IMG/VR virus record: IMGVR_UViG_3300023296_001057
Coordinates: 5,014 to 69,013 of that record
Strand: one strand, 5' to 3'
DNA length: 64,000 nucleotides
Source: a virus
Shown here: piece by piece, positions 3,505 through 36,883 of the stretch
Position numbering within the stretch: position 1 is the stretch's first letter
Layout: each line of letters starts with the position of its first letter
Translations under genes and position numbers: made by a program
The notes under the pieces: generated by a model
Told to the model about the DNA's origin: nothing
Seen by the model: only the letters and a program-made list of their open reading frames with translations
Databases searched by the model: none

Positions 3505-4562
3505 AATGTTAAATGTGGTTTCGCCTCTACTTGCCCAGCGTTTGTTATTTTAGTAAATTTAGCTTTTAAAAAGAAATCATCAATCGAAAATGCACCTGAA
3601 TAAGAAAGAGCCGAACGTAACCCATCATTTAATCCCTTTATCACATACTTCACTCCACCTTTATATGGTACAGTCGTAGATTCACCTTCTATATTTCTTT
3701 GTTCTTGATTATTACTTATTTTAGTTTCCAATGATGCAGATCCTCTATATCGTTTGAAGAGAGTTCCATTTTTTGTTATGACTGGCGCAGGTGTTTCTTG
3801 TGTTCCAGCAAACATAGAACCTAACATTACGGATGATGCTCCAATTGCAAGTGCTTTAGCAATATCACCCGCGTAACGGATTCCACCATCTGCGATAACT
3901 GGTACAGTTGATCTTTCTACTACATCCATAATAGATGTAACGGATGGTACACCATGAGCCGTTTCAATGCGAGTAGAGCATAATGAACCGTTTCCAACAT
4001 TGGCGCGTATTCCATCTACGCCCCAATTGCATAAATCTTCACTCGCTTCTTTCGTTGCTATATTCCCTGCTATAATATCAAACTTCAGTGAAGATGCTTC
4101 ACGAAATCTAATCAATTTCTCTATCATTCTTTTCACATTTAAATGATGCCCATGTGCTACATCAATTAAAATTACATTAGCTCCAGTTCTTATTAACTGG
4201 GATGCATTACTCAGTTGATAATCACCTACACCAATTGAAGCAATAATTGGAATTTCTAGATCACCCCAAAGTTCTCTAATATGGATTTCATCGGTAGCTC
4301 TTTTCAGTTTCAAAATAATATCACACTGATCGTTGATATGCATAAAACGATGTAAACATCCAGCTCCACCTAACTTCATTAAAGAATAACACATATCATA
4401 TTCTGAAATTGTATCCATCGGCGCAGATAAAAACGGAATCTTCAGTTTAAAATTAGTAGTTAATTGTGTAGATAAATCTACATCCGTTCTACTCAATACT
4501 GTACTATATTGTGGTATAATTTGTATGTCATCATACGTTAAACTTTCAATAAATTCTCCCAT
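3501..4562 (-). CDS. IMP dehydrogenase / GMP reductase family protein (no CBS domains)
   Basis: SAPMDT, IDVAHGH, GNGSLCSTR catalytic Cys loop, IADGGIR, MLGSMFAGT, YRGSAS. Confidence 0.9.
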   Translation of the reverse strand: MGEFIESLTYDDIQIIPQYSTVLSRTDVDLSTQLTTNFKLKIPFLSAPMDTISEYDMCYSLMKLGGAGCLHRFMHINDQCDIILKLKRATDEIHIRELWGDLEIPIIASIGVGDYQLSNASQLIRTGANVILIDVAHGHHLNVKRMIEKLIRFREASSLKFDIIAGNIATKEASEDLCNWGVDGIRANVGNGSLCSTRIETAHGVPSVTSIMDVVERSTVPVIADGGIRYAGDIAKALAIGASSVMLGSMFAGTQETPAPVITKNGTLFKRYRGSASLETKISNNQEQRNIEGESTTVPYKGGVKYVIKGLNDGLRSALSYSGAFSIDDFFLKAKFTKITNAGQVEAKPHLTL

Positions 4563-5219: not shown

Positions 5220-5248
5220 AATATACAAAAATTTGTATTAAATGTCAA
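5220..5248 (-). promoter_or_regulatory. sigma70-type promoter
   Basis: TTGACA-N17-TATATT. Confidence 0.75.
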
Positions 5249-6597: not shown

Positions 6598-8730
6598 TTA
6601 TTTTTCTAATAATACTTTATTAATCGTTCTTGCAACTTCATTCATATTTTGAACATTTATTATTTTACTATCTTTACCATATGAATTGTAAAACGAATCT
6701 CTTATTTCTGTGTAATTTTTGTGATCAGGAGATAACCTAGTAACAAAAAATGATATTACCTTTATACCTTTCTCTTTCATTTTTTTTACTTGTGCTAATG
6801 TGTGAGATTGTGCATTAATTCCTGAATAATCAATACCCAAACGCCGGTTTGAATATTCCGGCATTCCATCTGAAATGTTTAAGAAGATCGAATCTAAATT
6901 ATTAGATGATGTAAGTAATTCATCTGATATTGCCTCAAATGTCAGCCCCTCAGGAGTGTAAGCACAAGGGGCAATTTGAGGAAAAAGTGATCTTACTTTA
7001 TTAAAAGAATCTTTTCTAGAATCATATATTATTGCAATCAGTGGTAGTCCGTTATTCGTTCCTCTAATTGAAATTTGAACTTCTACATTAGATATCATAT
7101 CAACAGCTGTAGCAATTGCGGTTGCTAGTGTTAAAGATTCATTCCACTTTGCCCCGTACATTGAGGATGATGCGTCCAATGAAAAATGTAAATTAACTGT
7201 ATTGTACACGTCTACATCTTTATAGTAAAATACATTTTCGGAACCATATCCTAAAGAATGAATCAATCGTTTATCAATTTTTCCCTTTCGTTGCCTTGAA
7301 AATACAGTTTCACGTTGTTCACTTCTTACTTGAAGTTTTTTACCTAATATCCGACCAAGTCTGATTCCTTTTTCTACTTCATCGTCATATGTGGCACGGG
7401 TCTTAAAAGGAAATGTGGCTGAATCTAATACCCTTTGATTAAAGTTTTTTATCACTACAACATCTATTCCCTTACCTGCGTTGAAATATGGATTATCCTT
7501 AGCAACTGTTTCAATTTCCGCCTGGGAGTTTTCCATCTCTTTCATCTGTTCTACTTCTGAATTACTTAATGGGACTTTTTTAGTTTCACCGTTTATGAAT
7601 TCTTTTTGTTTCTCAATCAACTCATCAGTTTTCTCTTGTGTATCTTTATCAATTGATGGTTTTTTATCAGCTTCTTCATTTGATTTTTCAGTGGATTTAT
7701 CGGAATTATGTTCATCATTATTTTCCTCAGATGGCTCTTCACCTTGCCCCTTACCATTAGATGAATTACTTTCTTCTTCGTCAGAAGTTGAATTTGGCTC
7801 ACTACCACCATCAGAATCTTCAGTTTCATCAGAAGAAGTTGATGTATTGGAACTTTGATTAGAATTTGATTCCATTCCCTCTTCAGTTACTTCATCATCA
7901 TTACCTGATTCTGGTTCACCGTTATCATTTTCTGGGGGGTTTGGTTGTTGAGGCATTTCCACTTCTTCTAAATGGTTAAGAATAATTTCAAATACATCTA
8001 TTGCCACTTCTAATGCTTGAGCAGAATTGTTTAAACGATCTATATTTTTCAAATCTACAGTTTTGTATATCTCCGGTAATCCCTTTAAAGCATCTAATTG
8101 GGTAAATTTGGAATGTAAATTAATTAGTCGGAATTCATACGATTCGCACGTTTCAGTTGTATGGTACGAACTTTGTAATACATCATCAATAGTAGGAGAA
8201 TTAAAATACTTATCATATAATGCGTAATAGTATCCCCTATATCCTGGTGCCCTATCGAAAATATATCTATCAATTCGTCTATCTTCCACATAATTCAAAA
8301 TCAATGCCAATGAAGATAAACAGTTTACATTCACTTTTGATGCTCTTGCAGCTAAAGAGTGGTATTTATTTTGATCTTCTAGAATGGTTTTCAAATTTGG
8401 TTTGATATCAAAATCTGAAAGTAGAATATGTGATGCCTCATGTAGTGCCAATCCACACGCAACGTCAAATTCCTTTGGATCTTCTAGGTTGGCTGATATG
8501 ATGACTATTTTTGAATCCGTCATCGAATTTCCATTTGTATGGAATTTAACAGGAATATTTTTGCCTGTTAAAATAGATACAAAATTGGATATTGCCTTTT
8601 TAGATGAGCTTAATTTATATAAATTGTACGAGGACGTGGATTGTCTTCTATTTAAATCGGAAAGAATAGCTCTATCATTTGTGCGATCCATCCAAAACGA
8701 AGAGTGTCCGTATTTACCAAAAATGTTCAT
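6598..8730 (-). CDS. CobT-like protein: HExxH domain, acidic linker, VWA domain
   Basis: LHEASH, N.VEDRRI, MIDAS DASSSM, ISDG.P; adjacent to the AAA+ partner. Confidence 0.85.
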   Translation of the reverse strand: MNIFGKYGHSSFWMDRTNDRAILSDLNRRQSTSSYNLYKLSSSKKAISNFVSILTGKNIPVKFHTNGNSMTDSKIVIISANLEDPKEFDVACGLALHEASHILLSDFDIKPNLKTILEDQNKYHSLAARASKVNVNCLSSLALILNYVEDRRIDRYIFDRAPGYRGYYYALYDKYFNSPTIDDVLQSSYHTTETCESYEFRLINLHSKFTQLDALKGLPEIYKTVDLKNIDRLNNSAQALEVAIDVFEIILNHLEEVEMPQQPNPPENDNGEPESGNDDEVTEEGMESNSNQSSNTSTSSDETEDSDGGSEPNSTSDEEESNSSNGKGQGEEPSEENNDEHNSDKSTEKSNEEADKKPSIDKDTQEKTDELIEKQKEFINGETKKVPLSNSEVEQMKEMENSQAEIETVAKDNPYFNAGKGIDVVVIKNFNQRVLDSATFPFKTRATYDDEVEKGIRLGRILGKKLQVRSEQRETVFSRQRKGKIDKRLIHSLGYGSENVFYYKDVDVYNTVNLHFSLDASSSMYGAKWNESLTLATAIATAVDMISNVEVQISIRGTNNGLPLIAIIYDSRKDSFNKVRSLFPQIAPCAYTPEGLTFEAISDELLTSSNNLDSIFLNISDGMPEYSNRRLGIDYSGINAQSHTLAQVKKMKEKGIKVISFFVTRLSPDHKNYTEIRDSFYNSYGKDSKIINVQNMNEVARTINKVLLEK

Positions 8731-13714: not shown

Positions 13715-13743
13715 AATATACAAAAAATTCGAACGAATGTCAA
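13715..13743 (-). promoter_or_regulatory. sigma70-type promoter
   Basis: TTGACA-N17-TATATT. Confidence 0.75.
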
Positions 13744-14466: not shown

Positions 14467-14917
14467 AAACTTTAAAACCGTTTTTAATAAACATTGTTTG
14501 GGTGTATAAATCTTCATCTTCACATTCTACGTACAATGTAGATAATTCTTCGTTTTGAAAAACATCATAAACTACATCACATATAAATTGTGTAGGAACC
14601 TCACTTGTATATTTATTTTTTTTAGAAATAAATGTATCAAAAAAGAACACAGATGAATTTAAAAAACAATACCCAATAGGAAACTCTTCCTTATAAAGTA
14701 TATATATTAAATTTTCATTTTTTACACAATCTACAATATGGTCGAAATGGAATTCCAAATCATCCTTATATTCTATATTAATCTCTGATATTAAATACTC
14801 AATATCCTCTTTTATAAGTTTTAATGTATTGGGTGTTTCAACCTTAAACGAATGAAAATTATCTTGCAATGGAGAATTATTTAAAAAATCTTCTCGTTTT
14901 AAATTAAATTTTATCAT
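14459..14917 (-). CDS. hypothetical protein, possible GNAT fold
   Basis: PIGYCF strand and C-terminal FIKNGF resemble GNAT motifs. Confidence 0.5.
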   Translation of the reverse strand: MIKFNLKREDFLNNSPLQDNFHSFKVETPNTLKLIKEDIEYLISEINIEYKDDLEFHFDHIVDCVKNENLIYILYKEEFPIGYCFLNSSVFFFDTFISKKNKYTSEVPTQFICDVVYDVFQNEELSTLYVECEDEDLYTQTMFIKNGFKVYE

Positions 14918-14950
14918 AATATTTTCTATTAAAGTTAATGATAACCTTAT

Positions 14951-15484
14951 TTAGGTGTAATATTCTCTAATATCAATACTACCTTCAACTTCATTTCCCC
15001 AAATATCCCAACCTTGCTTTCCATCCCTGCAAAACATTTCAAGTCGATTAGCACTCGGAAACCAATCTTTTATTAAATCTCGTATGAAATTAGGTTTTTT
15101 ACTGTGTTTTGAGCGTTTTTCTACCATAACACTACTTATTCTTTTATCGCTCGCAGGTGGGCTAAATTTACCTTTCTTTGCCACAATAAGTATTTCGTGC
15201 TGTCCTCTAAACCAATACCCCATTCCAATCATTTGTTTGTCCCAAACACCTTGCGTTACATAAGTAAAGCCCCAAGCATCTATAACTTTTAATGCCTCAA
15301 GTAATTTAGGAGCGGTAGCCCATAAATAAAGTACGGCATTTTTGTTTGTCATATTGTCCACAGGTAAATCGCATATTTCCTTTATGCTCATTGTTGGGTA
15401 TTGGTTTTCAATATCCCTGCTTTTACTTTTACTAAAGTCATATCGCCAAGCAGGGTCGGCATAAATTACATCGTATTTTTTCAT
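14951..15484 (-). CDS. MT-A70 family adenine methyltransferase
   Basis: IYADPAW, YPTM, LYLWAT, WGF.Y, HSKKP, LEMFCR, WGNE. Confidence 0.9.
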   Translation of the reverse strand: MKKYDVIYADPAWRYDFSKSKSRDIENQYPTMSIKEICDLPVDNMTNKNAVLYLWATAPKLLEALKVIDAWGFTYVTQGVWDKQMIGMGYWFRGQHEILIVAKKGKFSPPASDKRISSVMVEKRSKHSKKPNFIRDLIKDWFPSANRLEMFCRDGKQGWDIWGNEVEGSIDIREYYT

Positions 15485-15561
15485 CTTTCGTTATTTTAAT
15501 CCGTTCATACTACACCTAACAATGTGTAAAACGGCATTAAAACGACCGTTTACACTCAGCG
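14951..15561 (+). mobile_element. integron-type gene cassette 1 (MT-A70 MTase, antisense)
   Basis: left end TTAGGTGTA (14951) is the exact reverse complement of TACACCTAA in the attC R'' box (15511-15519); cassette ends at G|TTAGAC. Confidence 0.75.
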
Positions 15562-15567
15562 TTAGAC
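15514..15567 (+). repeat. attC-like recombination site, copy 1
   Basis: R'' ACCTAAC, inner palindrome GTGTAAAACGG/CCGTTTACAC with one extra base, R' GTTAGAC. Confidence 0.75.
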
Positions 15568-16094
15568 CAACTATGTTTCATACGCGAAACTCTATGTTTC
15601 ACTCCTAATTTGGATAACCTTCTTTTCGCTGCTTTCACATTCTCGATAGAATCATCAATAAAAAATACATCATCGTATCCATCTTTTTTTATTTTTTCCT
15701 CGATCCAATCTGCTTTATGTTGAGGATCTGCACTTCCCAACGCTACTACTTCTACATCTCTAATACCAATATCCTTTAAATATATACTTATTGGTTTTGC
15801 CTTACTTCTTGCTGTTAATATATACACACCTCTATTACCCCTTGCTCTTACCATATCTTTTAAAATTCTAGTAATCGCCTTTATTTCAGTGGGATTTTTT
15901 ATAGTATCGAATTCTCTAAAATCAAATTCATCACCTTTTCTTGGTTTATATACTGCATATTGACCAGGTGTTAGTTTACTAATATTTCCACTTTCATGGT
16001 TGACGTATATATATGAATCGGTTTTTATAAGTGTATCATCCATATCAAATACTCTTAGTTTTTTAGATTCTATAAATAAAGTTCTTGCTATCAT
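15537..16094 (-). CDS. HAD-superfamily phosphatase
   Basis: VFDMDDTL, ILTAR, K, FIDDS; C-terminal tail now encoded by the attC. Confidence 0.8.
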   Translation of the reverse strand: MIARTLFIESKKLRVFDMDDTLIKTDSYIYVNHESGNISKLTPGQYAVYKPRKGDEFDFREFDTIKNPTEIKAITRILKDMVRARGNRGVYILTARSKAKPISIYLKDIGIRDVEVVALGSADPQHKADWIEEKIKKDGYDDVFFIDDSIENVKAAKRRLSKLGVKHRVSRMKHSWSNAECKRSF

Positions 16095-16432
16095 TAATCG
16101 CTATCTGATAAATTTTCATTTTCTAAGTCTGCAAAATCTTGATAATAACATTTAAACTTATCATTACTTTTTAAATAATGAATTTCCATTTTGAGTTCAG
16201 CTAATTGAATCTCCAATGATAATATCTTTGCAGTTTGATCTCTTTTTTCTTCTGCGGAACGTTCTAGTAATGCTTCTAATTTTAATATCCGTTCTCTATA
16301 ATCGTGTTTTATATAATTATCATCATCATTTTGTCGTATGAATTTTTCCCGTACATATACCCATATCCATTTTGATGATATGATAGCTGTTAAAATTGCC
16401 ACCGTAATTTTTAATACGTCTACTAATTCCAT
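16094..16432 (-). CDS. membrane-anchored coiled-coil protein
   Basis: N-terminal TM helix then heptad-rich region. Confidence 0.6.
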   Translation of the reverse strand: MELVDVLKITVAILTAIISSKWIWVYVREKFIRQNDDDNYIKHDYRERILKLEALLERSAEEKRDQTAKILSLEIQLAELKMEIHYLKSNDKFKCYYQDFADLENENLSDSD

Positions 16433-16463
16433 TTTTATTTAATTGAGTTTTCAATGAAACTTA

Positions 16464-16762
16464 TTACGATATATACATATTAAGTTCATATGTCTTGCCC
16501 ATATTATATACTTGGAAATGAACTCCCTTCCTTGAAGGTTTCCCATTTTTTAATAATGAAACTGTAAAACTATGTGTCTTCCTTTTGATGGTCTTGATTT
16601 TGTGTAACGTCCACCTAATGAAACTTTGCTCCACCATTCGTCTTCATCTACTTCGTATCCTTTTTTCTTTACTGTCCTTAAAACATATTCCGCTATTGCT
16701 GAAAACGATTCAAAATACGTGTCACTATATTCTTCGTTTAGTAAGTTTTTTAATCGTATCAT
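16464..16762 (-). CDS. hypothetical, probable virion-internal protein (1-nt frameshift near 16580)
   Basis: MIRLKNLLNEE leader; adding one A gives ...SKGKTHSFTVSLLKNGKP...YELNMYIS*. Confidence 0.6.
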
Positions 16763-16765
16763 AAT

Positions 16766-18592
16766 TTATTTTTTAGCAATTTTCCATACAATAGAACCTA
16801 CACCCTTTGCATCCAATTTATTTAATTTTTTCTTAACATTATCGTTAGCTACATCCCAAATTTGCCCTAACAGAGAAGCCGTTTGTAAATCAACTAATAC
16901 CCCATCTATTTTTTTAGCTTGTTTAGAATTAGCGACTCGAAATATACCATTAATAGTATTGGATGGTTCTACTGCTTCATTAATAGATTCATTCTTAGCA
17001 TCCCAATTTTTATCTATATAATCAAAGAATTCTTTTTGTTTCTCGGTTGATAAGTCATCTGGTGATTCTACATCAAATTTTGATAAAACCATCTTAAAGA
17101 ACTTCTGATATTCAGTTTCTTCGTTTACAGTTGGGTCGCATTCATCACATTCTTCATCGTATGCTTCCATTACTGCTCTTTTGTCTTTCAACATTTTTTT
17201 AAGTAATTCTTTTACAATTTTACCACCAGCATCATCATACATTTTATGAGCTCTACCTTCAAATCCTTTAATGGATTCACCTGTTCTTGCAAATTGAACG
17301 TCTCCGTTGGGTGTTTGTAAATAAAATTCACCAAATCCCATATGCTTTACTTCACTGTTAGGTAATACTCCACTTGTTCTGTTAATAAAAGTAGTATCTA
17401 CATATATATCTTTTCCTTTTTTCTTAATATGCCCTTCAGATGCTTCATTGATCATTCCTTCTAATAGTCCACCTGCAATTCCACCTACTTCAAAATCTGG
17501 ATCATCTGCGTATTTCTTACTCAATAGTACAAATGATTTTCTTCCTTTCTTAATTGTCATATGTGGTATAGGAGAAAATGAAAAATCTATTTTCTTAAAT
17601 CCAGCAGCTTTCAATGGATCTCTTAATCCCATTAAATTTCCTGTTGTCTTTACTACACCTTTAATGGTTTCAATATCTTGTGCTGAAAAGTTTTCATTTA
17701 TAGATTCAGTTACTATAATAACGGGTTCATCATATCTATTAGCCCCAATAGTGTATTTTTTACTACTAGTTCCTTTTGTTACAATTAATGTCCCATCGGA
17801 TTTAGTATCAACAACCGTAAAATAATCATTTTTATTTGAACGTTTAAATCCGCTTTCGTTACCCAAATAGAAAACAGAACCCTTTTTAGCCACATCCTCA
17901 AAATCATCTAATGAATTATACTTTTTATTGGATTCATTAATAGATTCATCAATTGCCTTTGGAAATGGTGTTTTCTTAGCTATTTGATATAACTTTTCCA
18001 AATCAGCTGGATCATTTCTATCAAACTTATCAGCGTTTCTGGTTTTCTTAAAAATGGCAGACGTTTTCTTACCATCTTTTTGGAGCATGATAATTATACC
18101 CTTTCCTTTATTATACAATCGTTCGTCAAATACTGAAATGGATTCATTAATAGATTCATTCTTAGCATCCCAATTTTTATCTATGTAATCAAAGAATTCT
18201 TTTTGTTTCTCAGTTGATAGATCGTCTGGTGATTCTACATCGAATTTTGATAAAACTGTCTTAAAGAATTTTTGATATTCAGTTTCTTCGTTTACAGATT
18301 CATCCAAATCCTCTGGTTCATCTAACAATGCTTTATTGAATTTAGTTTCAGCTGTTTTAAATTTTGCGGTTTGGTTTTTAACTTCTTTATGCAGATTTAC
18401 TATTTCTTTTTTTAATTTCTCTTTTTCGTCTGCTGAAGATTTCTTAAATTTATTAACCAATTCTGTTTGTTTATCTAATAAATTTTGGAGTTTTAGTCCC
18501 TCTTGTTGATAAGATTCGGATGCTTGTTTAAATCCTTTTGATATTCCAGCCTCTACTAACTTTGTGCTGATCTTTTGTTTGAGTTTATCCAT
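16766..18592 (-). CDS. multi-domain probable internal head / prohead-core protein
   Basis: domains separated by repeated ES(I/V)NE linkers; duplicated ~50-aa module; likely start MDKLKQK downstream of TACTTATA (18628-18635). Confidence 0.7.
   Translation of the reverse strand: MDKLKQKISTKLVEAGISKGFKQASESYQQEGLKLQNLLDKQTELVNKFKKSSADEKEKLKKEIVNLHKEVKNQTAKFKTAETKFNKALLDEPEDLDESVNEETEYQKFFKTVLSKFDVESPDDLSTEKQKEFFDYIDKNWDAKNESINESISVFDERLYNKGKGIIIMLQKDGKKTSAIFKKTRNADKFDRNDPADLEKLYQIAKKTPFPKAIDESINESNKKYNSLDDFEDVAKKGSVFYLGNESGFKRSNKNDYFTVVDTKSDGTLIVTKGTSSKKYTIGANRYDEPVIIVTESINENFSAQDIETIKGVVKTTGNLMGLRDPLKAAGFKKIDFSFSPIPHMTIKKGRKSFVLLSKKYADDPDFEVGGIAGGLLEGMINEASEGHIKKKGKDIYVDTTFINRTSGVLPNSEVKHMGFGEFYLQTPNGDVQFARTGESIKGFEGRAHKMYDDAGGKIVKELLKKMLKDKRAVMEAYDEECDECDPTVNEETEYQKFFKMVLSKFDVESPDDLSTEKQKEFFDYIDKNWDAKNESINEAVEPSNTINGIFRVANSKQAKKIDGVLVDLQTASLLGQIWDVANDNVKKKLNKLDAKGVGSIVWKIAKK
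16976..17130. repeat. internal domain duplication, copy A
   Basis: encodes VNEETEYQKFFKMVLSKFDVESPDD...WDAKNESINE; near-identical to 18143-18297. Confidence 0.9.
18143..18297. repeat. internal domain duplication, copy B
   Basis: encodes VNEETEYQKFFKTVLSKFDVESPDD...WDAKNESINE. Confidence 0.9.
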
Positions 18593-18662
18593 TGTAGAAT
18601 TTTCCTTTATTAATATTTTTGTATATCTATAAGTATTAGAAAACAATAAAAAACACAATTAT

Positions 18663-19346
18663 TTAAGAAATATAATGATTGAATACCGATGTACGGAATT
18701 TATCTTCCCTATCTTTAGTGGTTTCCCATATACTATTTGATTGGTTTATTTTCGGGTTAGGTTTCAGCCAATTTTGTGGATGTGGTTGAATATACATTTT
18801 TATTTTTTTATTTATACAGTATGCGGATACCCATATATCTAACATATTTGGATAGTCTAAAAAAGCATCATAGGGAATATTTCTAACTACAGATGAATCT
18901 GTTAAACAAACTCCAGTACCTACTGCATGGATTTCTTTTTTCTCTTTTATCGCTCCACCAAAATAATAGCCTGACGTATCCCCGTGATTAAAACTTGATA
19001 TGGGAAGGGAAGGAAACACTTTACCATGTGAAGATTGAATAGTTCCTAATGTATATGTTTTTAGATTTTGCTCCACATAATCAGATGGATATAGAATATC
19101 ATCATCAACCATAAAAAAGTAGAACTCTGAATCTTTGATAAAATCCAACACTTTTATTTTTCCAGTTGCTCCACAGTTACCTTCCATATAATATGTAACA
19201 TTTTCAAATTCTGTAAATGGAACTTCAGTATAATCATTTAACCATACATGAATCTCATCTACTTGTGGAGATAGTGAATTCAACGTATCCCATAATCCTA
19301 CCTTTCTTTCTCTTTGTGATGCAACTCCTACTATTTTCTTCATCAT
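18663..19346 (-). CDS. GT-A fold glycosyltransferase
   Basis: FMVDDDILYP, GTG, DIW. Confidence 0.8.
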   Translation of the reverse strand: MMKKIVGVASQRERKVGLWDTLNSLSPQVDEIHVWLNDYTEVPFTEFENVTYYMEGNCGATGKIKVLDFIKDSEFYFFMVDDDILYPSDYVEQNLKTYTLGTIQSSHGKVFPSLPISSFNHGDTSGYYFGGAIKEKKEIHAVGTGVCLTDSSVVRNIPYDAFLDYPNMLDIWVSAYCINKKIKMYIQPHPQNWLKPNPKINQSNSIWETTKDREDKFRTSVFNHYIS

Positions 19347-20068
19347 CTATTTTTAACTGTTATGTATCCGTTTTTTATATAAGTGGATACGATTTCATCA
19401 CGTAATTTCATATGATTTGATTTTCTCCATGATGAATTATTATCATTTCCATAATTGGAACCTTTGGATGGAAGCGAACCCCACAATTCAATATTATCTT
19501 CTGGATGTGGTGGCACAAATGTATCTACATCGCCTTCCAATTTAGCTAAAAACGATAATTGTATATCTTCTCCATTATCCCATGAGATTGGATTTTCTAC
19601 CCACATATACCGTAAATAATCTTTCTTCATAAACCAAGAATGTCCGACTAAATCAACTTTTTGTGGGACAGAATGGTGTGATCCATTCCATCCTATTTTA
19701 GTATGGGTTTGATAGTTATCTGAATTTAAATATATTCCAGTTGAACCTAAAATACCATCATATCCACTTTCAATAGTATCCAAGCAATTCTGGAACCATT
19801 GATTTCCAGGTATAGTATCATCATCAAAAAACGCTACATATTCGGTTTTAGTAAGCAACCCAAATGAAAATCTACCATGAAATTTAAAGTTATGATTCAA
19901 TGTAGCAACCTTTACATCTAATTCAGATAAATCAAATTGCGTTTCATCTTCTGGTTTATTATACCATATCCAAATATCAGTTGGTTTTATTGTTTGATTT
20001 TGTATTGCTTCAATTTGTTCCTTTAAGTATTGAGGGCGTTTATAACAATTTAATACTACTGTAATCAT
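19343..20068 (-). CDS. GT2-family glycosyltransferase
   Basis: ITVVLNCYKR, FFDDD, GEDI. Confidence 0.85.
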   Translation of the reverse strand: MITVVLNCYKRPQYLKEQIEAIQNQTIKPTDIWIWYNKPEDETQFDLSELDVKVATLNHNFKFHGRFSFGLLTKTEYVAFFDDDTIPGNQWFQNCLDTIESGYDGILGSTGIYLNSDNYQTHTKIGWNGSHHSVPQKVDLVGHSWFMKKDYLRYMWVENPISWDNGEDIQLSFLAKLEGDVDTFVPPHPEDNIELWGSLPSKGSNYGNDNNSSWRKSNHMKLRDEIVSTYIKNGYITVKNR

Positions 20069-21025
20069 TTATCTTTCAAAATCTATATATTTTTTATTTC
20101 CATTTGATGTTAAAATAACATCTACATCATCAAATTTATCCAATTTAGTTTTACCAATATATTTAAAATCATCTAACCATTCATAGATCAATCCATATGT
20201 ATCTGAAAATCCATAATAGGTTATTAAATTAGAACTATCTATATTTTTATAAATATGTACTATATTTTCAATTTCATTAATTTCTCGTAGTGTATGTAGT
20301 TTCATTCTTTTTTTTGAAAATAATATTACATCATTCCATCTTAATTTTTTAAATAGAGTATGATGATACAAATTGTCCAGATTATTAATATCATCATTAA
20401 TATCAACAAGTCCATCACATTGATATTCTTTCCCACTCTTTCTTTTAAATTCACCTAAAACATCACACGTATTATCAAACCCCTTTTTAGAAAATAATAC
20501 AACAGTGCGATGTCCACCTGCAACATTCCACTTTCCTAATACCACATATGGGAGATGAAAATGATTCAATAAATCATCTTCCGAGTTAAACAGAGATTTT
20601 TGAATTTTGAACCAATGATGATTATTTCTTGTACTTTCTGAAATATTTCCAGTATCAAATATTAAATATTTGGATCTTAATAATAACTTTAAAAAAACAT
20701 CATCTGCAGTTGCAAGACCATATTTTCCGAGAATGTGATGGTAAATACTTAAAAATAATGTACAGTCATTATAAACAATATCATTAGTTGTTATAATATT
20801 ACGTTTTTTAAAATGAAAATCGGATGGATAGTTAAGTCCATCAGCCAAATCAGTACCCATTACCGTTTTACCCAATTTATGTTGTAAGGGGTATGATATA
20901 TTCCCATTATTACAACCAACATCATATATAACATTTATATCGTTTGAATCTTGAATAAATTCAAAAACCATATTTTTTTTAAAATCACCGGTTCTTCTAT
21001 AATATGAACTGTTATCTATCATCAT
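20069..21025 (-). CDS. class I SAM-dependent methyltransferase domain protein
   Basis: YDVGCNNG, FLSIYHHI. Confidence 0.7.
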   Translation of the reverse strand: MMIDNSSYYRRTGDFKKNMVFEFIQDSNDINVIYDVGCNNGNISYPLQHKLGKTVMGTDLADGLNYPSDFHFKKRNIITTNDIVYNDCTLFLSIYHHILGKYGLATADDVFLKLLLRSKYLIFDTGNISESTRNNHHWFKIQKSLFNSEDDLLNHFHLPYVVLGKWNVAGGHRTVVLFSKKGFDNTCDVLGEFKRKSGKEYQCDGLVDINDDINNLDNLYHHTLFKKLRWNDVILFSKKRMKLHTLREINEIENIVHIYKNIDSSNLITYYGFSDTYGLIYEWLDDFKYIGKTKLDKFDDVDVILTSNGNKKYIDFER

Positions 21026-22014
21026 GTCTCCTTTAATATTGTATCCACAACTCGTTTTGACGTGATACCATCACCATATGGACACTCAATTTCAATATAT
21101 GGATTTTTTATCAGAATGTCAAATAAATCTTTAAGTTCATTAGGTCTATCACATAAATGTAAGTGTCCTGTATCAATTCCTTCGGGTCTTTCTGTAGTCT
21201 TTCTACATACAATAACTTTCTTATTAAAGAATGAACCCTCTTCCTGTAATCCACCGCTATCTGTTATTATTAATGATGCTGATTTGAGTACCTTAATGAA
21301 GTCATCGTGTTCCATAGGTTCTACTACGTTAACATTAGTTAATAAATTTTTATATTTAATAACATTTGGATTCGGGTGAATCGGTAGGACAAATTCTATA
21401 TGTGGATATTCTTTGGCAATATTATTAATTTCTTCAAACCACTGTTCTATCCAATGATGATTCTCCCGTCTGTGAAGTGTAATTAATACTTTATCTTCAT
21501 ATGTAGGCTTTCCATATTTAGTGAGGTTATCTAGTACTGAATTACCTACTACTTTGATATCACCGTGGACTTTTTCACTCCTCAAATTTTCTGCTGACAA
21601 TTCAGTTGGTGTGAAATTCACATCTGCTATTCGGGATATCATTTGTCTATACCCTTCTTCAGGATATGGATGTTTCATATTTCCGCTACGGAGTCCTGCC
21701 TCTAAGTAGTATATCTTTAATTCCCTATTAAAAGCGGATAGAGCACAACCAAAAGATGAACCTGTGTCACCCTGTACTAATACTGAATCAATCGTATAGT
21801 CATTTGGAAATTGTAACATACAAGAACTTATAATACTATCCAATCTATTAGCTGACCAGTTAGGTATTTTAATTTTATAATCTACTTCTATATTTTTTAG
21901 TAAATCAGGATGCTGTCCTGTAAATAGTAATTTATATTGAGAACTATCTAAAATCTCAATTAATGGTTTTACTTTCAACCATTCGGGCCTTGTACCAAAA
22001 CATATTAAAATCAT
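21022..22014 (-). CDS. wecB: UDP-N-acetylglucosamine 2-epimerase
   Basis: FGTRPE, TGQH, VQGDT, EAGLRS, PEE, HRREN, TDSGGLQEE, TERPE, PYGDG. Confidence 0.95.
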   Translation of the reverse strand: MILICFGTRPEWLKVKPLIEILDSSQYKLLFTGQHPDLLKNIEVDYKIKIPNWSANRLDSIISSCMLQFPNDYTIDSVLVQGDTGSSFGCALSAFNRELKIYYLEAGLRSGNMKHPYPEEGYRQMISRIADVNFTPTELSAENLRSEKVHGDIKVVGNSVLDNLTKYGKPTYEDKVLITLHRRENHHWIEQWFEEINNIAKEYPHIEFVLPIHPNPNVIKYKNLLTNVNVVEPMEHDDFIKVLKSASLIITDSGGLQEEGSFFNKKVIVCRKTTERPEGIDTGHLHLCDRPNELKDLFDILIKNPYIEIECPYGDGITSKRVVDTILKET

Positions 22015-22062
22015 AGTTTATATTTTTTAAAAAGAAATGTCATTTCTTTAGGGAGGAGTAGT

Positions 22063-22491
22063 TCAACTTAAATAGTCAAGAGCTTTCTTATATATTTCTG
22101 TTCTTGCATAATCATCTTCGTTAGGATTAGAAATTCTTTTTAAGTTTATGTTATCTTTCAAATCAGCTATTTTCACAATCTTCGCCAATCGGTTAGACTT
22201 TACATTACTTAAATATGACTTATAAGATGCTGATGGTTTCTTAGTTATTGCTTTAACCGCGAGTGAAACCTCTTTACCAAATACTTTTTCAATTTCCCTG
22301 ATATTTATCTTTGTATCTTCAACAATATCATGTAATAATGCTACAATTCCCAATGATTCAGGCTTAGCATTAAATCCGCCTACACCTTTGAAAACTCGTT
22401 TAATATGATTAAAGTAAGGACTTCCTCCCCTATCTCTATATCCACTATGTAATTTTTCTGCTAATTTATACGCTTTCTTTATGTCAGTCAT
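22063..22491 (-). CDS. HD-domain (SpoT/Mesh1-like) hydrolase
   Basis: H.G..D..G.PY..H, LLHDIVEDT, VKIADLKDN. Confidence 0.85.
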   Translation of the reverse strand: MTDIKKAYKLAEKLHSGYRDRGGSPYFNHIKRVFKGVGGFNAKPESLGIVALLHDIVEDTKINIREIEKVFGKEVSLAVKAITKKPSASYKSYLSNVKSNRLAKIVKIADLKDNINLKRISNPNEDDYARTEIYKKALDYLS

Positions 22492-22891
22492 TCACTTTTG
22501 AAATGTAGAACCAATTACTATTAATAACTTGGTATTTCCATTCTCCTTTAATTTTATTTATAAACTTATCAATAACACTTTCATAGAAAGAACCTTTTCT
22601 TTCAGTTGATGCCGAAAAGTAAAAGAAATCATAACCACTTTGGTTGATAAGTGCTATTGAACCTAAAAGTATTTTATTTATAACACTGAAAATAGACAAC
22701 CCCACAGGAAGTATATTATCATCATAAACACGAACATCATAACGTGATTCGTCATCTGTGGAATTCCAGTCTGCCCATAAAGAACTATTGAGTTCTTCTA
22801 CTTCTTTCAAATAATAGAACTCTAATTCTCTGCTTTCGGAAAGTTGAATTTCCCAAACGTGATTTTCGATATGTATTTTCTTACTTAACAT
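22484..22891 (-). CDS. hypothetical protein
   Basis: ORF directly behind a sigma70-type promoter. Confidence 0.6.
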   Translation of the reverse strand: MLSKKIHIENHVWEIQLSESRELEFYYLKEVEELNSSLWADWNSTDDESRYDVRVYDDNILPVGLSIFSVINKILLGSIALINQSGYDFFYFSASTERKGSFYESVIDKFINKIKGEWKYQVINSNWFYISKVND

Positions 22892-22900
22892 TACATATAT

Positions 22901-22929
22901 AGTATACCGATTTTTTATATAAAAGTCAA
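22901..22929 (-). promoter_or_regulatory. sigma70-type promoter
   Basis: TTGACT-N17-TATACT. Confidence 0.7.
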
Positions 22930-22933
22930 GGGA

Positions 22934-23640
22934 TTAATCAAAAAATATTGTATTATATTCAAATAATTCTCCATCAATTTCAAAACTTTCTCTGGTATTA
23001 CCGAAACTAAATAGTTTTTTAGATAGATTAGCATCAAACTTATCAATTTTTTCGGGCTTTGATCTCCATTTAGTATAAATACCATGTGCAGCCTCCTTAT
23101 ACTTCCATAGACGATCAGACATCACCTGTAGTTCCACGTCCATACCATTAATATTCAACTCAATATGGTGAGCCCCATAATATCCATAATTCGTTCATTA
23201 CCCCTTTTTTTATACTCATAATCAATAATATATTTACTTTGCTTTCTTCTAAAATCTTTAATAAAATCATTCATCTCATCGTAATCTTTGAAAAGAACTA
23301 CACCACGTATTATATCCCCTATTTGGGATAAGGATTTACCTCGTTTTATTACTTTATTTATAATGGAACTGATGGATTTTATCTGATGCATGAATTTGTA
23401 TTCCTGTGATGATCCTTTCTTAGGTAGACCTTTATCAACTATCTTATAAAATATATCTCTCGTATTAGATATTATTTCGCCGTTTTTATTAATAAGATTT
23501 GTTAAAATTTCAATATTCTCTTTCTTACTTCGCTTTCCTCTTAATGCAATAAACTTACGAACTTCTTTATCCATAAGTAAAGCATCATTCCGTTCACTAA
23601 TAAAAGTGGAATCTGGTAACAATTCAATTAGTTTTTTCAT
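22934..23640 (-). CDS. RelA/SpoT-like small alarmone synthetase domain protein (frameshift near 23189)
   Basis: joining the two ORFs gives IKS..S...K...DIIRG...YGYYGAHH...ELQV...AHGIY. Confidence 0.7.
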
Positions 23641-23649
23641 TACGATCAG

Positions 23650-24163
23650 TTGTAAACAATGCTACGTTCTACCATCAAACACCACCACCATAGAATCGTG
23701 CATTCCAGCTTTGCCCGTAACATATTCACCCTTCGTATTTACACCGCAAAATTTTATTCTCTTTTCTATGAATCGGATCTCTTTTTGGTTCGGCAATATA
23801 TGTCTGTGAAATAATTGAGTGCTTGTGCTTACAGGTAAAAGCATTACACATAATTTACCTTTCTTGCTTTCCTCTATTGCCTTAATTACGAACGCATCTT
23901 TAAGTTTTCTGCTATAAGGTGGGTTAATAAAATTTCGCTCCTTCCATTCTACATTTAAACCATCGTGCTTTTCAATATCGTTTTGATACGGGCAAGGGTC
24001 GTAGTTAAAATTAAATTCACCGTTCAATTCATCATAAAAGTATGGTGGTGTAGCCCAATCGTCTTTATGTGGTATATTTCTATTTTTCATAATTTATCTC
24101 TTTAAATCCGCACAGTTTACAACAATGTGTAAACGGCATTAAAACGACCGCTTACACTCAGCG
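23650..24163 (+). mobile_element. integron-type gene cassette 2 (Dam-like MTase, antisense)
   Basis: left core G|TTGTAAAC (23649-23657) is the exact reverse complement of GTTTACAAC in R'' (24115-24123); cassette ends at G|TTATAT. Confidence 0.78.
23662..24090 (-). CDS. phage-type DNA N6-adenine methyltransferase
   Basis: WATPP, F..DPC, DGL...W, FINPPYS, MLLP, F...RIKF. Confidence 0.9.
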   Translation of the reverse strand: MKNRNIPHKDDWATPPYFYDELNGEFNFNYDPCPYQNDIEKHDGLNVEWKERNFINPPYSRKLKDAFVIKAIEESKKGKLCVMLLPVSTSTQLFHRHILPNQKEIRFIEKRIKFCGVNTKGEYVTGKAGMHDSMVVVFDGRT

Positions 24164-24169
24164 TTATAT
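24117..24169 (+). repeat. attC-like recombination site, copy 2
   Basis: R'' TTACAAC ... R' GTTATAT; interior differs from copy 1 by one substitution and one A. Confidence 0.75.
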
Positions 24170-24179
24170 ATAATATATA

Positions 24180-24187
24180 TATAAGTA
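24180..24187 (-). promoter_or_regulatory. putative late promoter motif TACTTATA
   Basis: same TA(C/T)TTAT(A/T) motif is intergenic at 10267, 11549, 18628, 48418, 54725, 56453. Confidence 0.5.
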
Positions 24188-24235
24188 CTGAATTTTAAAA
24201 AATCCGGTACCAAAATATATTAAAATCATATCTTA

Positions 24236-24940
24236 TTACCAAATGCAAGTTTTATTTTCGGTTACTTTCTTATTCAAATATCCTCTATTATTTCCAACTA
24301 TCCAAGGATTTATAGTAGAACCAATATCTATGTATGTGTTATTTGGATTTACCATATGAAGTTGATGTGCTAATATATTCCCCAGTGGACCTGCTGAAAA
24401 AAGGAAAAGTTGATTATTCTTTGTTGCTTTTTCTTTCATCATTTCCAAAATTATTTTTAGTTCGGGATTAAACCAAGAACCAATTTGTATTGATATATAT
24501 TCATCTACTTTAAATGGAAGTTTCTTATTAATCCCTTTTTCATTTGCAACTAATGTAACATCACCTTCCCAATTATTAAATTCAATAAAAAAGTTATCTT
24601 TAAAAAATTCATAATTTGAATTTACAAAAAGATTTGCCCAGGTAACATTATCACAGACAACAGTATCCCGCATCCATTGTACATGATCTGTTGGCTGACA
24701 ACATGGACAACTGATTCCTACATAATACTCCTTGTTTCTATATAAAAAAGATTCCATTAATATCTGATATTCAAATTGGTGAAGATTAGGATTAAATGAC
24801 CATCCATCACAATTAGTAATTGGTTGATTACGTAAAACTTTATATTCACCATCGGCATATTTACTAAAAGAAAATGGTTCTTTATTTTGTAACTTATTAA
24901 AAAGAAAATGAAGATCTGTATGAAAAGATTTTGTTAGCAT
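24236..24940 (-). CDS. GT-D-like glycosyltransferase
   Basis: FSKYADGE, FLFSAGP, YIDIGS. Confidence 0.7.
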   Translation of the reverse strand: MLTKSFHTDLHFLFNKLQNKEPFSFSKYADGEYKVLRNQPITNCDGWSFNPNLHQFEYQILMESFLYRNKEYYVGISCPCCQPTDHVQWMRDTVVCDNVTWANLFVNSNYEFFKDNFFIEFNNWEGDVTLVANEKGINKKLPFKVDEYISIQIGSWFNPELKIILEMMKEKATKNNQLFLFSAGPLGNILAHQLHMVNPNNTYIDIGSTINPWIVGNNRGYLNKKVTENKTCIW

Positions 24941-29209: not shown

Positions 29210-29731
29210 TTATAAATCTATTTTAAATTTTACTTTATCTGTAGTAGAATATATAATATATGTAGGATCTACTGTGAACTCTCTTATTTTCTTTTCATTG
29301 AATAACTTAACATATTTACTTCCTGTTCCACTTTTTAAATAAGCCACTGTTAAATGTGGATTGTATTCATCATATGGATTAGTATGTGGTAGTTTTTTTA
29401 AATCGGAATTACATTCATATATACTTTTACCTGAAACGATAAATTTTAATACATCGTATTCATCAGTTTCAAATAATGATATATTATTTATTGTACATTT
29501 ACCAAATTCATACTTCGATACTATTTTTTTAATTGAATCTAATGAAACATTATCATGCAATCCATATAACAACGTACAATGCGGTTCTACTTCTTTTGTT
29601 AGTAAATCTTCTTCTTCTATATAACTATGTAATTCCGTTATTTTCGGAAATTTAAAATACAACATCGCACATCCGTACGTTCTCTTATTAACCGTTTCAA
29701 ATATAATATCTAAAATATTTCTCAGTTTCAT
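29210..29731 (-). CDS. 2H phosphoesterase (Acb1/gp57B-like)
   Basis: two HxT motifs: EPHCTLLYG and YNPHLTVAY. Confidence 0.8.
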   Translation of the reverse strand: MKLRNILDIIFETVNKRTYGCAMLYFKFPKITELHSYIEEEDLLTKEVEPHCTLLYGLHDNVSLDSIKKIVSKYEFGKCTINNISLFETDEYDVLKFIVSGKSIYECNSDLKKLPHTNPYDEYNPHLTVAYLKSGTGSKYVKLFNEKKIREFTVDPTYIIYSTTDKVKFKIDL

Positions 29732-30016
29732 TTTATATTATCCATATTAATATCAGCAAGAAAACTATAAAAATTTTCATCATAAGTAACATCTTCAATT
29801 TTTTCTTTGATTTCTTTAGGTGATTCTGTTATTTTAAAATCAATCCTTTCAATCCTAAGATTTGAGTTATTCATATTTGTATAAAACCATTGCCCAATCT
29901 GAATATCTTTTTTGATAATTCAGTCAAAGCATTTACTACATTATCAACTTCTCGTTGTATTTGTTCCTTTGTTACCTTCATCTTCATTTATTTTTATATA
30001 GTGTTATTGTTTATTT

Positions 30017-30928
30017 TCATGTCCATTTATTAAAATCAGGAGTTTGCTCTACCTTTCCATCACAATGAACCCCTAAGAACTCACAAAATTTACAATTGCG
30101 TTGCTTTTCTCCAGGCGTTTTTCTATATGGTTGATCTTTATATGAGCCATCATCGTTAAACACGTCATCTACAAAATTCATAAACTCTTTATATGCTTTA
30201 TTAGTGGAAGGTGTACCATGAGATGGAACGAATCTGGAAATTCTTGGATTAGACCAACCTGTATCTTTTAGTTTTCTTTTTAGTATTTGATACTCAACTG
30301 TAATTTTATCTAGCGATACATCGAATTTTCCAGCATAGAACTTCTTATACAACAGCATTTGAGAAGTTTTGATCTTATCATTTTTCTCCCAATGTGACCA
30401 ACCCCATGTAGATGTTTTTAAATCTATAATTGTATATATATCTTTTTCTTTATTTCTAATACAAACATCAATAAAACCTAAGAACTGTAAACCTTCTTTT
30501 AGTTGATTATCTAATTTTAATTCGATTCCTACTAACTCATACCCTCTTTTCTTATAAAACTTAGAAGTGTTTGATTTAAACCATTTTAAGATTTGCCTAC
30601 CTTGTCCATAAAACTCTTCCAATTCCAATTGAGTGCAAGGATTTAGGTTATCTATAGATTTTTCTTTTTCTTTTTTAAAGTTATCCACCAATGCTTTCAT
30701 TAACATTGCGTCTAAATTTAACATATCCGCACTCTTCTTAGAACTCTCATACATCTTGGTTAGATAAGTTTGTACAGTATCATGCATACTAGAACCAAAG
30801 ATCAAATGTATAGAAGATTCTTTCTTTGATAATTTATCAATATACTTCAGTTTATATTGTCTTGGGCAATTTGAGTACATTGAAAATTGTGAATACGAAA
30901 CTACCTTTGTTCTTTCTTTTTTACTCAT
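30017..30928 (-). CDS. PD-(D/E)XK (RecB/Cas4-like) exonuclease
   Basis: SYSQ...CP, FG...H, GFID, IDLKT, Q...Y, C-terminal CKFCEF...C. Confidence 0.85.
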   Translation of the reverse strand: MSKKERTKVVSYSQFSMYSNCPRQYKLKYIDKLSKKESSIHLIFGSSMHDTVQTYLTKMYESSKKSADMLNLDAMLMKALVDNFKKEKEKSIDNLNPCTQLELEEFYGQGRQILKWFKSNTSKFYKKRGYELVGIELKLDNQLKEGLQFLGFIDVCIRNKEKDIYTIIDLKTSTWGWSHWEKNDKIKTSQMLLYKKFYAGKFDVSLDKITVEYQILKRKLKDTGWSNPRISRFVPSHGTPSTNKAYKEFMNFVDDVFNDDGSYKDQPYRKTPGEKQRNCKFCEFLGVHCDGKVEQTPDFNKWT

Positions 30929-35641: not shown

Positions 35642-36883
35642 TTATCTACCCACTTCTTTGATATATTTTTTCTTGGCAGTTTCCCAATCCATACCTATGA
35701 TCGGAAGATACCATAATAACTCAGGTTTTATTCTATCGTCCTCAATTAATTTTAGGTATCGCCTTTTAGCTTTTTTCTTCCACCATTTCAAAGAGTATTC
35801 ATCACCTTCTTTAAATTTAGTTTTCATCACTAAATCTTCTTCAGGTATTTCATCTCGTAAAAATTCATTACCGTTATCATACATCATTGCTAAATATACA
35901 CCACGCTTAAATCCATGGTGGTACTCTGATTGTTTGATTCCTAATTCTTTAAATATCATACCTAATATTCGCTGTTTAATACCACTAACTGGGCCAGATG
36001 CACCCTCTCCCGTTCCCATACTTTTACCGTTGCGGATACGTTCATTTGTGATCTTTTTCTCATAATCATCTGCTCTATGCTTTTTTAACCATTGATGCCA
36101 AGGTTCGTATACAGAATCATCAGGTTTGATACTAATTTTGCCTTTACTTTCACCTAGAGTTTTAAAATGTGGTATACCATTATACTGTGAATGAACTCCA
36201 TATAAAGAAGTAGTACCAACTCCTATTAATCTATCACCATATTTACTTTCCCATGCATCCCTTACAACTGGAGATGTTGCCATACACGCAATTAACTTAC
36301 CTCCTAAAAAATTATATCCCAATGGTTGTGTAGAAACTATAGTTGTTGCAATAGCAGTATTGTTTAATTTACCTTTTTTAAATCTATCATCACGCGACCA
36401 TCCAATATAAGCATCTCTTACTCCAAGTGAAGTTACATCAGAACCAACTGAAATTTGTCCTAATATTTTATTAGTTTTTTTATCACGAACATTAAATTTT
36501 AGATTTCTACCAGGATTAGCTACATATGCCATTGTATGAATTAGTTTCCTTACTTCAACCCATTGAGTCGCATCATCAGAATTTTCTATATATTCTACAA
36601 ATGGTTCTAATTCATCTATTTCTTTTAATGTTACATCAACGTTATAAATATCTTTCGGCATCCATAATTGATCATAATTTAATGCCAATTGAGATTTTTT
36701 TGAATATGATGATTTTAAATCTTTGTTCCACTCTTCCCATTTTTTATAAAGAGTTTGTTCCTCTACACTCATATTATAAAGATAGTCCATATTTTCTATA
36801 AACTTCTTTTTTTCTACTTCAAAGTTAAATTCACCATCATCAAAATCATCACCATTATCCCAAAAATTATTATTTCCTATCAT
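35642..36883 (-). CDS. DUF4338 / DruA-like protein
   Basis: PGR.L...V.D, RD.YIGW, QPLGYNFLGGKL.A, TTSLYG..SQY, LG...G. Confidence 0.7.
   Translation of the reverse strand: MIGNNNFWDNGDDFDDGEFNFEVEKKKFIENMDYLYNMSVEEQTLYKKWEEWNKDLKSSYSKKSQLALNYDQLWMPKDIYNVDVTLKEIDELEPFVEYIENSDDATQWVEVRKLIHTMAYVANPGRNLKFNVRDKKTNKILGQISVGSDVTSLGVRDAYIGWSRDDRFKKGKLNNTAIATTIVSTQPLGYNFLGGKLIACMATSPVVRDAWESKYGDRLIGVGTTSLYGVHSQYNGIPHFKTLGESKGKISIKPDDSVYEPWHQWLKKHRADDYEKKITNERIRNGKSMGTGEGASGPVSGIKQRILGMIFKELGIKQSEYHHGFKRGVYLAMMYDNGNEFLRDEIPEEDLVMKTKFKEGDEYSLKWWKKKAKRRYLKLIEDDRIKPELLWYLPIIGMDWETAKKKYIKEVGR

Follow-up and report, generated by a model that had tools for sequence, protein, structure and literature searches.

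The phage genome fragment described here belongs to the 69,013-nucleotide (nt) viral record IMGVR_UViG_3300023296_001057 of IMG/VR, for which CheckV estimates a completeness of 36%. We analysed 64,000 nt of it (positions 5,014 to 69,013 of the record), referred to below as the window and used for all coordinates. The replication genes of this phage are T4-like: a family-B DNA polymerase, a clamp loader, gp32, a RecA/UvsX-like protein and an intein-bearing ribonucleotide reductase. The minus strand holds 78 of the 80 open reading frames (ORFs) kept in the window. Between the stop codon of a 234-amino-acid (aa) gene (24236–24940, minus strand) and the ATG of the next ORF (23155–23640, minus strand) lies a unit of 514 nt, cassette 2 (23650–24163), which is the subject of this work. 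It carries one gene, on the minus strand at 23662–24090, and one hairpin, at 24115–24165 of the plus strand, built like the attC site of an integron cassette. A related hairpin closes a second unit of the window, cassette 1 (14951–15561, plus strand). We propose, with a probability that we put at about 80%, that cassette 2 is an integron-type gene cassette, that is, one gene and one attC-like site, inserted at a G|TT step of the phage chromosome.

The gene of cassette 2 encodes a predicted N6-adenine DNA methyltransferase of the Dam family, 142 aa long and with an NPPY motif. It scores 72.2 bits against PF05869 (cut-off 28.1, E 5.4e-20) and matches PHROG 111, 'DNA methyltransferase', with E 1.5e-36. 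An earlier note on this DNA had described the gene as antisense to the canonical cassette direction; the ORF strands bear this out, and yet the gene is co-directional with the genes of the phage. Its ATG is separated from the hairpin by 24 nt.

The ends of the unit can be read directly. The left junction is the G at 23649, the right end is the G at 24163, which closes ...CAGCG, and TT follows at 24164–24165. Removal of 23650–24163 leaves G|TT, and G|TT stands at both junctions of the occupied locus, in agreement with the boundaries and the target given by the earlier note. On the minus strand, CTGATCGTA and the ATG at 23640, 9 nt past the insertion point, open the ORF 23155–23640.

The site is composed of an outer box R'' (24115–24123), a 5' stem arm (24127–24136), a loop (24137–24147), a 3' stem arm (24148–24157), a spacer (24158–24162) and the crossover (G at 24163, TT at 24164–24165). 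The unpaired spacers on the two sides are 3 and 5 nt long. The partner of R'' lies at the opposite end of the cassette: the first eight bases, TTGTAAAC (23650–23657), form the distal half of the cassette's own R' box and, with the terminal G, complement R'' over 9 nt (GTTTACAAC with G+TTGTAAAC). The element thus combines a G|TT crossover, complementary outer boxes R''/R' and an inner imperfect inverted repeat with an unpaired spacer, and the attC-like architecture ascribed to it holds. A covariance model of the element, R1, matches positions 24108–24179 with 68.6 bits (E 2.2e-16). As R1 is tuned to one loop type, all counts obtained with it are lower bounds. With filters off, R1 finds in the window only the two known sites at E better than 0.1 (68.6 and 59 bits), the next match reaching 17 bits. 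A loose script scan for the order AAC, stem, loop, stem, GTT gave 158 matches on the plus strand of the window and 305–348 in shuffled windows with both strands pooled, counts that are not informative.

Cassette 1 combines a minus-strand methylase gene of the MT-A70 family (14951–15484, Pfam MT-A70 E 1e-24) with an attC-like site at about 15511–15561 (R1, 59 bits). The repeat common to the two cassettes (15529–15564 and 24131–24166) is identical at 35 of 36 positions, and a 49-nt stretch of the second copy was matched by none of 100 shuffles. The differing position, C at 24151, where cassette 1 and contig L003 have T, creates a mismatch (A.C) on the top strand and a wobble (G.T) on the bottom one. 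This wobble is as the earlier note had described it; the substitution is not the sole difference, since the 5' stem arm has a 1-nt indel as well (AAAA vs AAA) and the outer boxes are unlike (ACCTAAC vs TTTACAAC). Cassette 1 has a bulged base, shared by four other members of 136 aligned sites, and cassette 2 instead a mismatch or wobble. Across the family, top-strand A.C pairs (T.G wobbles on the bottom strand) outnumber top-strand G.T pairs by 61 to 24, a modest hint that it is the bottom strand that folds. Cassette 1 fits the outer-box consensus RYYYAAC/GTTRRRY fully (ACCTAAC/GTTAGGT).

Both cassettes recur elsewhere. A 30-nt pattern, searched exactly in IMG/VR, was found in five other contigs. 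Contig L003 (positions 2516–3036) reproduces window 23649–24169 with 99.2% identity over 521 nt, and no other homology exists between the two loci. Its junctions read ...tcG|TTGTAAAC on the left and ...CAGCG|TTGTATG on the right, again with G|TT on both sides. Likewise, L001 (2420–3033) matches window 14951–15564, the MT-A70 unit, at 92.2%; there it forms a tandem array with another methylase unit, which immediately precedes it and has the same hairpin element at its end. Contigs of metagenome run X5 span only window 23649–24166. Together with the L003 copy in its unrelated flanks, they bear out the earlier claim of a mobile cassette with precisely these ends. In four metagenome runs, contigs sharing the hairpin leave the window sequence at 24165–24168, and the hairpin is covered to a depth of 25–124 compared with about 2–5 on its flanks. 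More generally, the blocks of homology between unrelated contigs consist of a gene and a site: they start at GTT in eight cassette types and end 2–15 nt past the G.

This hairpin is one member of a large family. The 17-nt word of its loop was found in at least 123 viral stretches and in 120 stretches of genomes, 60 of the latter with the flanking AAC...GTT architecture. By a rough estimate about 70 chance matches to the loop word are expected in 596 Gb, which is consistent with only half of the genome sites having that architecture. For 35 of the 40 aligned genome sites with a record label, the label is Bacteroidota. The parts of the element come in this order: an outer box ending in AAC, 1–3 unpaired nt, a stem arm of 8–10 nt, the loop, the complementary arm, 3–6 unpaired nt and G|TT. 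In the alignment of 136 sites, pairing in the inner helix reaches 86%, and both partners vary in 9 of the 12 pairs. Covariation scores 0.352, against 0.164 for column shuffles and 0.06–0.11 with slid partners; none of 500 shuffles reaches this value, a count that is not a probability, the aligned sites being related to each other. The core pairs of AAC/GTT are kept in 132, 132 and 133 of the 136 sites. The loop word CATTAAAACG recurs with different stems, and sites with other loops occur in L049 (4300–4426), in L068 and in Polaribacter phage P12002L. In the latter, R1 finds five matches, and a methylase or Mom gene follows closely on every one of them; the best match has 68.2 bits at 29996–30069, and the other four are weaker. 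A blastn search with the 76-nt site against the GenBank phage collection returned no match; R1 does detect the family in P12002L, and the blastn miss is a matter of sensitivity.

The two ends of a cassette are matched to each other. In 12 of 13 instances, covering seven types, the cassette start complements its own R'' over 8–10 nt; the thirteenth, cassette 1 of the window, gives 10 by eye, and its copy in L001 shows a run of 10. The flank that actually follows the site complements R'' over 3–7 nt, with one exception of 9 in which the neighbour has the same start. For cassette 2 the run is 9 with its own start and 3 with the following flank. Since the outer boxes differ between cassette types, this pairing is a covariation across 500–900 nt. 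That a start pairs with its own R'' hundreds of bases away, and not with the adjoining flank, is expected for a circular intermediate cut at G|TT. Predicted folding agrees with this: the circle junction gives −12.1 (top strand) and −13.3 kcal/mol (bottom strand), the integrated form −6.7 and −7.3.

An occupied and an empty version of one such site are found in two related phage contigs, L049 and L068, which are 99–100% identical. L049 has an extra cassette of 392 nt exactly at the G|TT of a resident site: after the G of that site L068 continues directly with TTAGGTGCAAT, and L049 first has the insert, then TTAGGTGCAAT. The insert starts with TTATAAGTA, ends in ...CCG and holds an inverted ORF of 80 aa. 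The insert brings its own attC-like site, in which the loop is long and AT-rich and the R'' box reads TACTTATAAC, and it shows a start/R'' match of 10 nt. The two contigs differ by further cassettes nearby. One of these differences starts right after a conserved ...GTCTAACCCCACG|TT that lies 40 nt upstream of a gene for a 271-aa tyrosine recombinase, at 2455–3267 of L049.

The genes attached to these sites are oriented differently in phages and bacteria. With the strand that has R'' first taken as the top strand, an inverted ORF, starting close to R'' (at 20–150 nt) and running in the opposite direction to the site, accompanies 86 of 102 viral sites, and only 3 have a canonical ORF alone; of the 60 bacterial sites, 34 show the canonical arrangement only, in which the end of an ORF shortly precedes the site, and 9 an inverted one only. 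The first viral ORFs amount to 88 distinct ones (20 cut by locus ends). Thirty of them are DNA methylases from six Pfam families: N6_N4 (18), MT-A70 (5), C5 (4), Dam (1), D12 (1) and an EcoRI-type enzyme (1, a marginal match). Two of the 88 are Acb2/Tad1-like.

This placement bears on the best surviving alternative, namely that the element is a regulatory hairpin of methylase genes (a structure of the 5' untranslated region, an operator or a processing site) carried along by illegitimate or homologous recombination. The position upstream of an ORF in 86 of 102 viral loci, many of them with methylases, is what such a hairpin should show; its loop is strongly conserved, and a short motif recurs between site and ATG. 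In bacteria, however, the same strand lies downstream of co-directional ORFs (34 of 60), and because the transcribed strand thus differs between viral and bacterial loci, the element appears to be a DNA-level site rather than an RNA motif. Homology between unrelated contigs ends within a few bases of G|TT, the far end of the cassette complements R'', and L049 differs from L068 by an insertion exactly at G|TT. No Rfam family matches the element, the three weak matches elsewhere in 14800–24400 being unrelated to it. We therefore hold the regulatory explanation to be improbable.

Still less probable is a mobile regulatory cassette of the kind named PeSL in T4-type phages, shuffled by homologous recombination between promoter/stem-loop repeats. 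Such cassettes are the subject of published work (PMC2839356 and PMC4122927). The likeness consists in small accessory genes in a T4-like phage, a repeated stem-loop as boundary and proposed circular intermediates. The window, too, has T4-like replication genes and an intergenic stem-loop present twice. The element discussed here is found in one copy per cassette, at a single end, and its exchange points sit at a fixed dinucleotide step, not anywhere within the repeat. PeSLs, on the other hand, contain a promoter, stand on either side of the gene and are exchanged by homologous recombination. The promoter motif of the phage is not part of the element, and no terminator-like site was found in 23400–24500.

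We give an equally slight chance to a non-autonomous single-strand transposon of the IS200/IS605 type, moved by an HUH (Y1) transposase, which binds a hairpin and places the element 3' of a short target. A hairpin with a conserved loop would suit such an element, as would the lack of a target-site duplication and the AA with which the flanks always close on the gene-sense strand. Here the hairpin stands at one end only, and the sites form same-strand arrays that adjoin tyrosine recombinases. IS200/IS605 elements rely on short guide pairing, and the start/R'' complementarity of 8–10 nt goes beyond what this predicts. Finally, chance resemblance or an internal duplication of phage DNA, which the presence of only two copies in the window might suggest, is refuted by the 0 of 100 shuffles, the unrelated methylase families, the homology to L003 and L001 and the occurrence of the element in more than 100 other contigs.

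On the reading as an integron-type cassette, we propose the following course of events. Cassette 2 would have entered the phage chromosome as a circle, in which the G at its end is joined to TTGTAAAC at its start, making the outer box R' complete. The single-stranded site, possibly that of the bottom strand, would fold into the paired boxes R''/R', with their conserved AAC/GTT, and the inner stem. A tyrosine recombinase would then cut between G and TT and join the circle to the phage G|TT situated 9 nt upstream of the next ATG. Such an insertion would split R' and separate TTGTAAAC from its partner by 514 nt. A promoter of the methylase's own has no room in the 24 nt that lie between R'' and the ATG, and the gene is probably read through from upstream phage transcription. 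Its product probably protects the phage DNA from a restriction enzyme of the host. Phages appear to exchange such cassettes, probably as an escape from host restriction enzymes.

Several observations weigh against this reading. The gene of cassette 2 is inverted relative to canonical cassettes, not co-directional with its site, and the outer boxes of this cassette retain only AAC/GTT of the consensus. At the left flank of cassette 1 (14949–14953) a T, not a G, precedes TT (ccttaT|TTAGG), leaving the crossover ambiguous within TTAG. Conservation of the terminal loop far exceeds that seen in classical attC sites, in part by construction, as every seed held the loop word. In Maribacter contig L169 the sites (3780–3850, 5975–6046 and 7567–7638) follow large ordinary genes, encoding a 383-aa esterase, a 601-aa M61 peptidase and a regulator, and the bacterial element could in part behave as a dispersed repeat. 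An empty-site allele of this phage was not found: a search of viral contigs with the two flanking proteins gave no relative of the locus, and a 22-nt word of the left flank had one match in the metagenome contigs, in an unrelated context. The contigs of the four runs, which cannot show rare variants, contain neither a joint across the cassette nor a circle junction. Lastly, no tyrosine recombinase (PF00589) is present in the 69-kb record, about 36% of the genome by CheckV.

As for the enzyme, the earlier note had assumed the integron integrase IntI, and this is not borne out: besides the lack of a tyrosine recombinase in the record, none of five bacterial genomes in which sites cluster on the same strand has a match over the cut-off of the integron-integrase model TIGR02249. 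On contig 35 of genome G001, a site and its ORF divergently adjoin a gene for a 277-aa recombinase, located at 1474–2304 of stretch L251. This protein is best matched, with 218 bits (cut-off 220), by a XerA-type model named 'tyrosine recombinase/integron integrase'. Against TIGR02249 it reaches 204 bits (cut-off 265) in two pieces, 5–176 and 243–314, which skip model positions 177–242, the region that we take to be the location of the IntI-specific domain. Homologues with 38–45% identity lie within a few kb of sites at three bacterial loci and at the viral loci L016, L037 and L049/L068, with weaker matches of 26–28% identity in L017 and L056. A homologue is found in 56 of 81 sampled genomes of the same order.

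Among 29 loci with such a homologue, R1 places a site 0.5–0.7 kb from the 5' end of the gene, in divergent orientation, in three cases, and one weak match has the same layout; one further weak match is on the strand of the gene, beyond its 3' end. The two closest homologues have TTAACAACAAG|TT in common, about 75 nt upstream of the gene, and carry different first cassettes. This is the layout of an integron, yet the recombinase, judged by its sequence, falls outside IntI. A complete integron, with an intI gene including the extra domain, attI and the promoter Pc beside an array, was not found. The candidate enzyme for cassette 2 may be a XerA-like, 'integron-integrase-like' recombinase of host or phage, or else a true IntI.

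Taken jointly, these data allow a broader and more tentative proposal, to which we would give slightly less than even odds. Bacteroidota phages and their hosts may run an integron-like system of their own, with a small XerA-like recombinase devoid of the IntI-specific domain and an attC with a near-fixed loop. The phage cassettes of this system would be inverted and mainly carry counter-defence genes, namely DNA methylases of at least six families and Acb2/Tad1-like proteins. Some phages would have the whole platform, as may be the case in L049/L068, where a recombinase gene is preceded, at 40 nt, by a conserved site and the array is not the same in the two genomes, which are 99–100% identical. 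Both methylase cassettes of the window would be off-platform insertions at GTT sites.

A few variants of the element were seen along the way. Directly after it, L012, L026 and L088 have mini-hairpins in which R' and R'' pair straight around a CATTAAAACGA loop. In L068 (oriented 5960–6215) a mini-hairpin unit with the CATTAAAACGA loop is followed by stem arms enclosing a small ORF, and the cargo there seems to sit inside the loop of the inner stem, not between R' and R''. Short sites of about 30 nt, CGCACTAA...AAAACG|TTA, without the long stem, mark more cassette boundaries (L049 6330–6370 and L068 oriented 3285–3320); these may be degenerate or alternative sites. In alignment A1, the flank tends to GTT-R-nnnn-(C/T)AAT at 8–11 nt past GTT, the window version being GTTATATATAAT, which reflects either common cassette starts or a target preference longer than GTT.

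The surroundings of cassette 2 do not bear out two further statements of the earlier note. It had placed the insertion behind a putative promoter or phage motif. The window contains a recurrent sigma-70-like motif, TTGACA-N17-TATAnT, with 15 matches against 6.2 expected and almost all on the gene strand (on the minus strand, for instance, at 5220–5248, 13715–13743, 40938–40966, 54729–54757 and 58660–58688), which probably represents the promoters of the phage. It is absent from the 72 intergenic nt (24164–24235, minus strand) that precede the insertion in the minus sense, where only weak promoter-like matches are found, the best local ones agreeing at 9 of 12 positions. The region is no richer in promoter-like sites than shuffled sequence (10 vs 6.6 ± 2.3). 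The sequence TACTTATATATA, with at most 2 mismatches, gave 53 matches against 37.9 ± 6.4, scattered, and the proposed phage motif TACTTATA... was rejected, as it shows no convincing recurrence.

The downstream gene had been called RelA/SpoT-like. The ORF 23155–23640 (minus strand) scores only 15 bits against Pfam RelA_SpoT (PF04607; E 0.032, below the cut-off of 27), and it matches phrog_37685, of unknown function (PHROG 37685, E 5.9e-14). It covers positions 72–189 of this profile and represents the N-terminal part of a split gene; the C-terminal part (positions 197–249, E 1.6e-9) lies in another frame, in the overlapping minus-strand ORF 22934–23158. The two point to a frameshifted or split gene. 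At cassette 1, the HAD/PNK-like gene upstream (15537–16094, minus strand) enters the attC-like site, and its last eight codons and stop fall within the site (15537–15565). The insertion of cassette 1 seems to have replaced the end of this gene.

Other genes of the window also appear in pieces. The family-B DNA polymerase is found as two ORFs with consecutive parts of the profile (40980–41684 and 42025–43791), as is the RecA/UvsX-like gene (52024–52845 and 52955–53698), and both may be split or interrupted. Two ORFs of the Mom family lie about 1 kb apart (38054–38662 and 39711–40178), which may reflect split genes or intervening elements. The large subunit of ribonucleotide reductase (44470–48381) has an intein with an HNH endonuclease domain. 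The similarity of an 81-aa ORF (49289–49534) to the N6_N4 DNA methylase profile is confined to the final 40 positions, and the ORF may be a methylase remnant; R1 found no attC-like site beside it. A direct repeat of 191 nt, 86% identical (16976–17166 and 18143–18333), falls within the ORF 16766–18658 of 630 aa and corresponds to an internal protein duplication. Of the ORFs 29210–29728 and 35642–36880, one has weak Acb1 / 2H-phosphoesterase matches and the other a DruA-family match, and they may serve defence or counter-defence.

Parts of this picture have precedents. Loot et al. (bioRxiv 10.1101/2022.09.11.507474) report experimental insertion of cassettes outside integrons at sites that share only G|WT, the solitary cassettes being called SALINs. 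Cassette 2 resembles a SALIN at such an attG site in having one gene and one folded attC-type site, a target defined by G|WT only, no integrase nearby and, probably, expression from a neighbouring promoter. It differs in that the recipient is a lytic-type phage, the gene is inverted, the attC loop is near-fixed and the enzyme is maybe not IntI.

Qi et al. 2023 (PMC9892861) found integrons or their components in 21 phages with generic attC tools. Among these, P12002L has a CALIN with two methylases, whose sites lie in 'divergent directions' and whose attC2, which may be one of the R1 sites, recombined with attI1 under IntI1; the R' consensus GTTRRRY is quoted. By R1 the P12002L genome holds the same family of elements, with methylase and Mom neighbours. 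As far as the text of that paper available to us extends, it describes no Bacteroidota-wide family, consistent inversion, solitary GTT insertions, occupied/empty pairs or XerA-like recombinase. IntegronFinder 2.0 (PMC9024848) states that an earlier survey found only In0 (isolated integrases) in Bacteroidetes and adds one complete integron, in Salinibacter ruber. The titles and abstract openings of the papers found on attC and Flavobacteri* contain no description of this hairpin family. The attC sites and methylase cassettes in phages, as well as insertion at GWT sites, are already published, and the present finding is an extension, not a new category. The extent of the family, its inversion, the counter-defence cargo and a recombinase that is likely not IntI were not found in the published descriptions, as far as the consulted parts of these go.

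Compared with classical integrons, the likeness consists in the G|TT crossover, the R''/R' boxes and inner repeats with an unpaired spacer, the split R' and the one-strand arrays. In Flavobacteriales contigs it extends to a recombinase gene in divergent orientation, with a first cassette that varies and, about 75 nt upstream of the gene, a conserved site. The differences are a linked 277-aa recombinase that lies below the TIGR02249 cut-off and has a XerA-type best model, and the inversion of the phage cassettes. With phage morons and orphan methyltransferases, the cassettes share an accessory, probably anti-restriction, gene placed between two phage genes. Morons are defined by a promoter and a terminator of their own and, to our knowledge, have no dedicated recombination site, in contrast to cassette 2 with its defined site and fixed ends.

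Integrons are bacterial devices that stockpile resistance and anti-phage genes. The cassettes described here would place integron-type cassette chemistry on the phage side of the conflict, in the form of methylase and counter-defence units inserted at G|TT and common to unrelated lytic-type phages. This would give phages a site-specific means of quickly swapping anti-restriction genes and would account for the patchy distribution of orphan methylases among related phages. The family extends integron-like recombination into Bacteroidota, with a recombinase that may not be a classical IntI.

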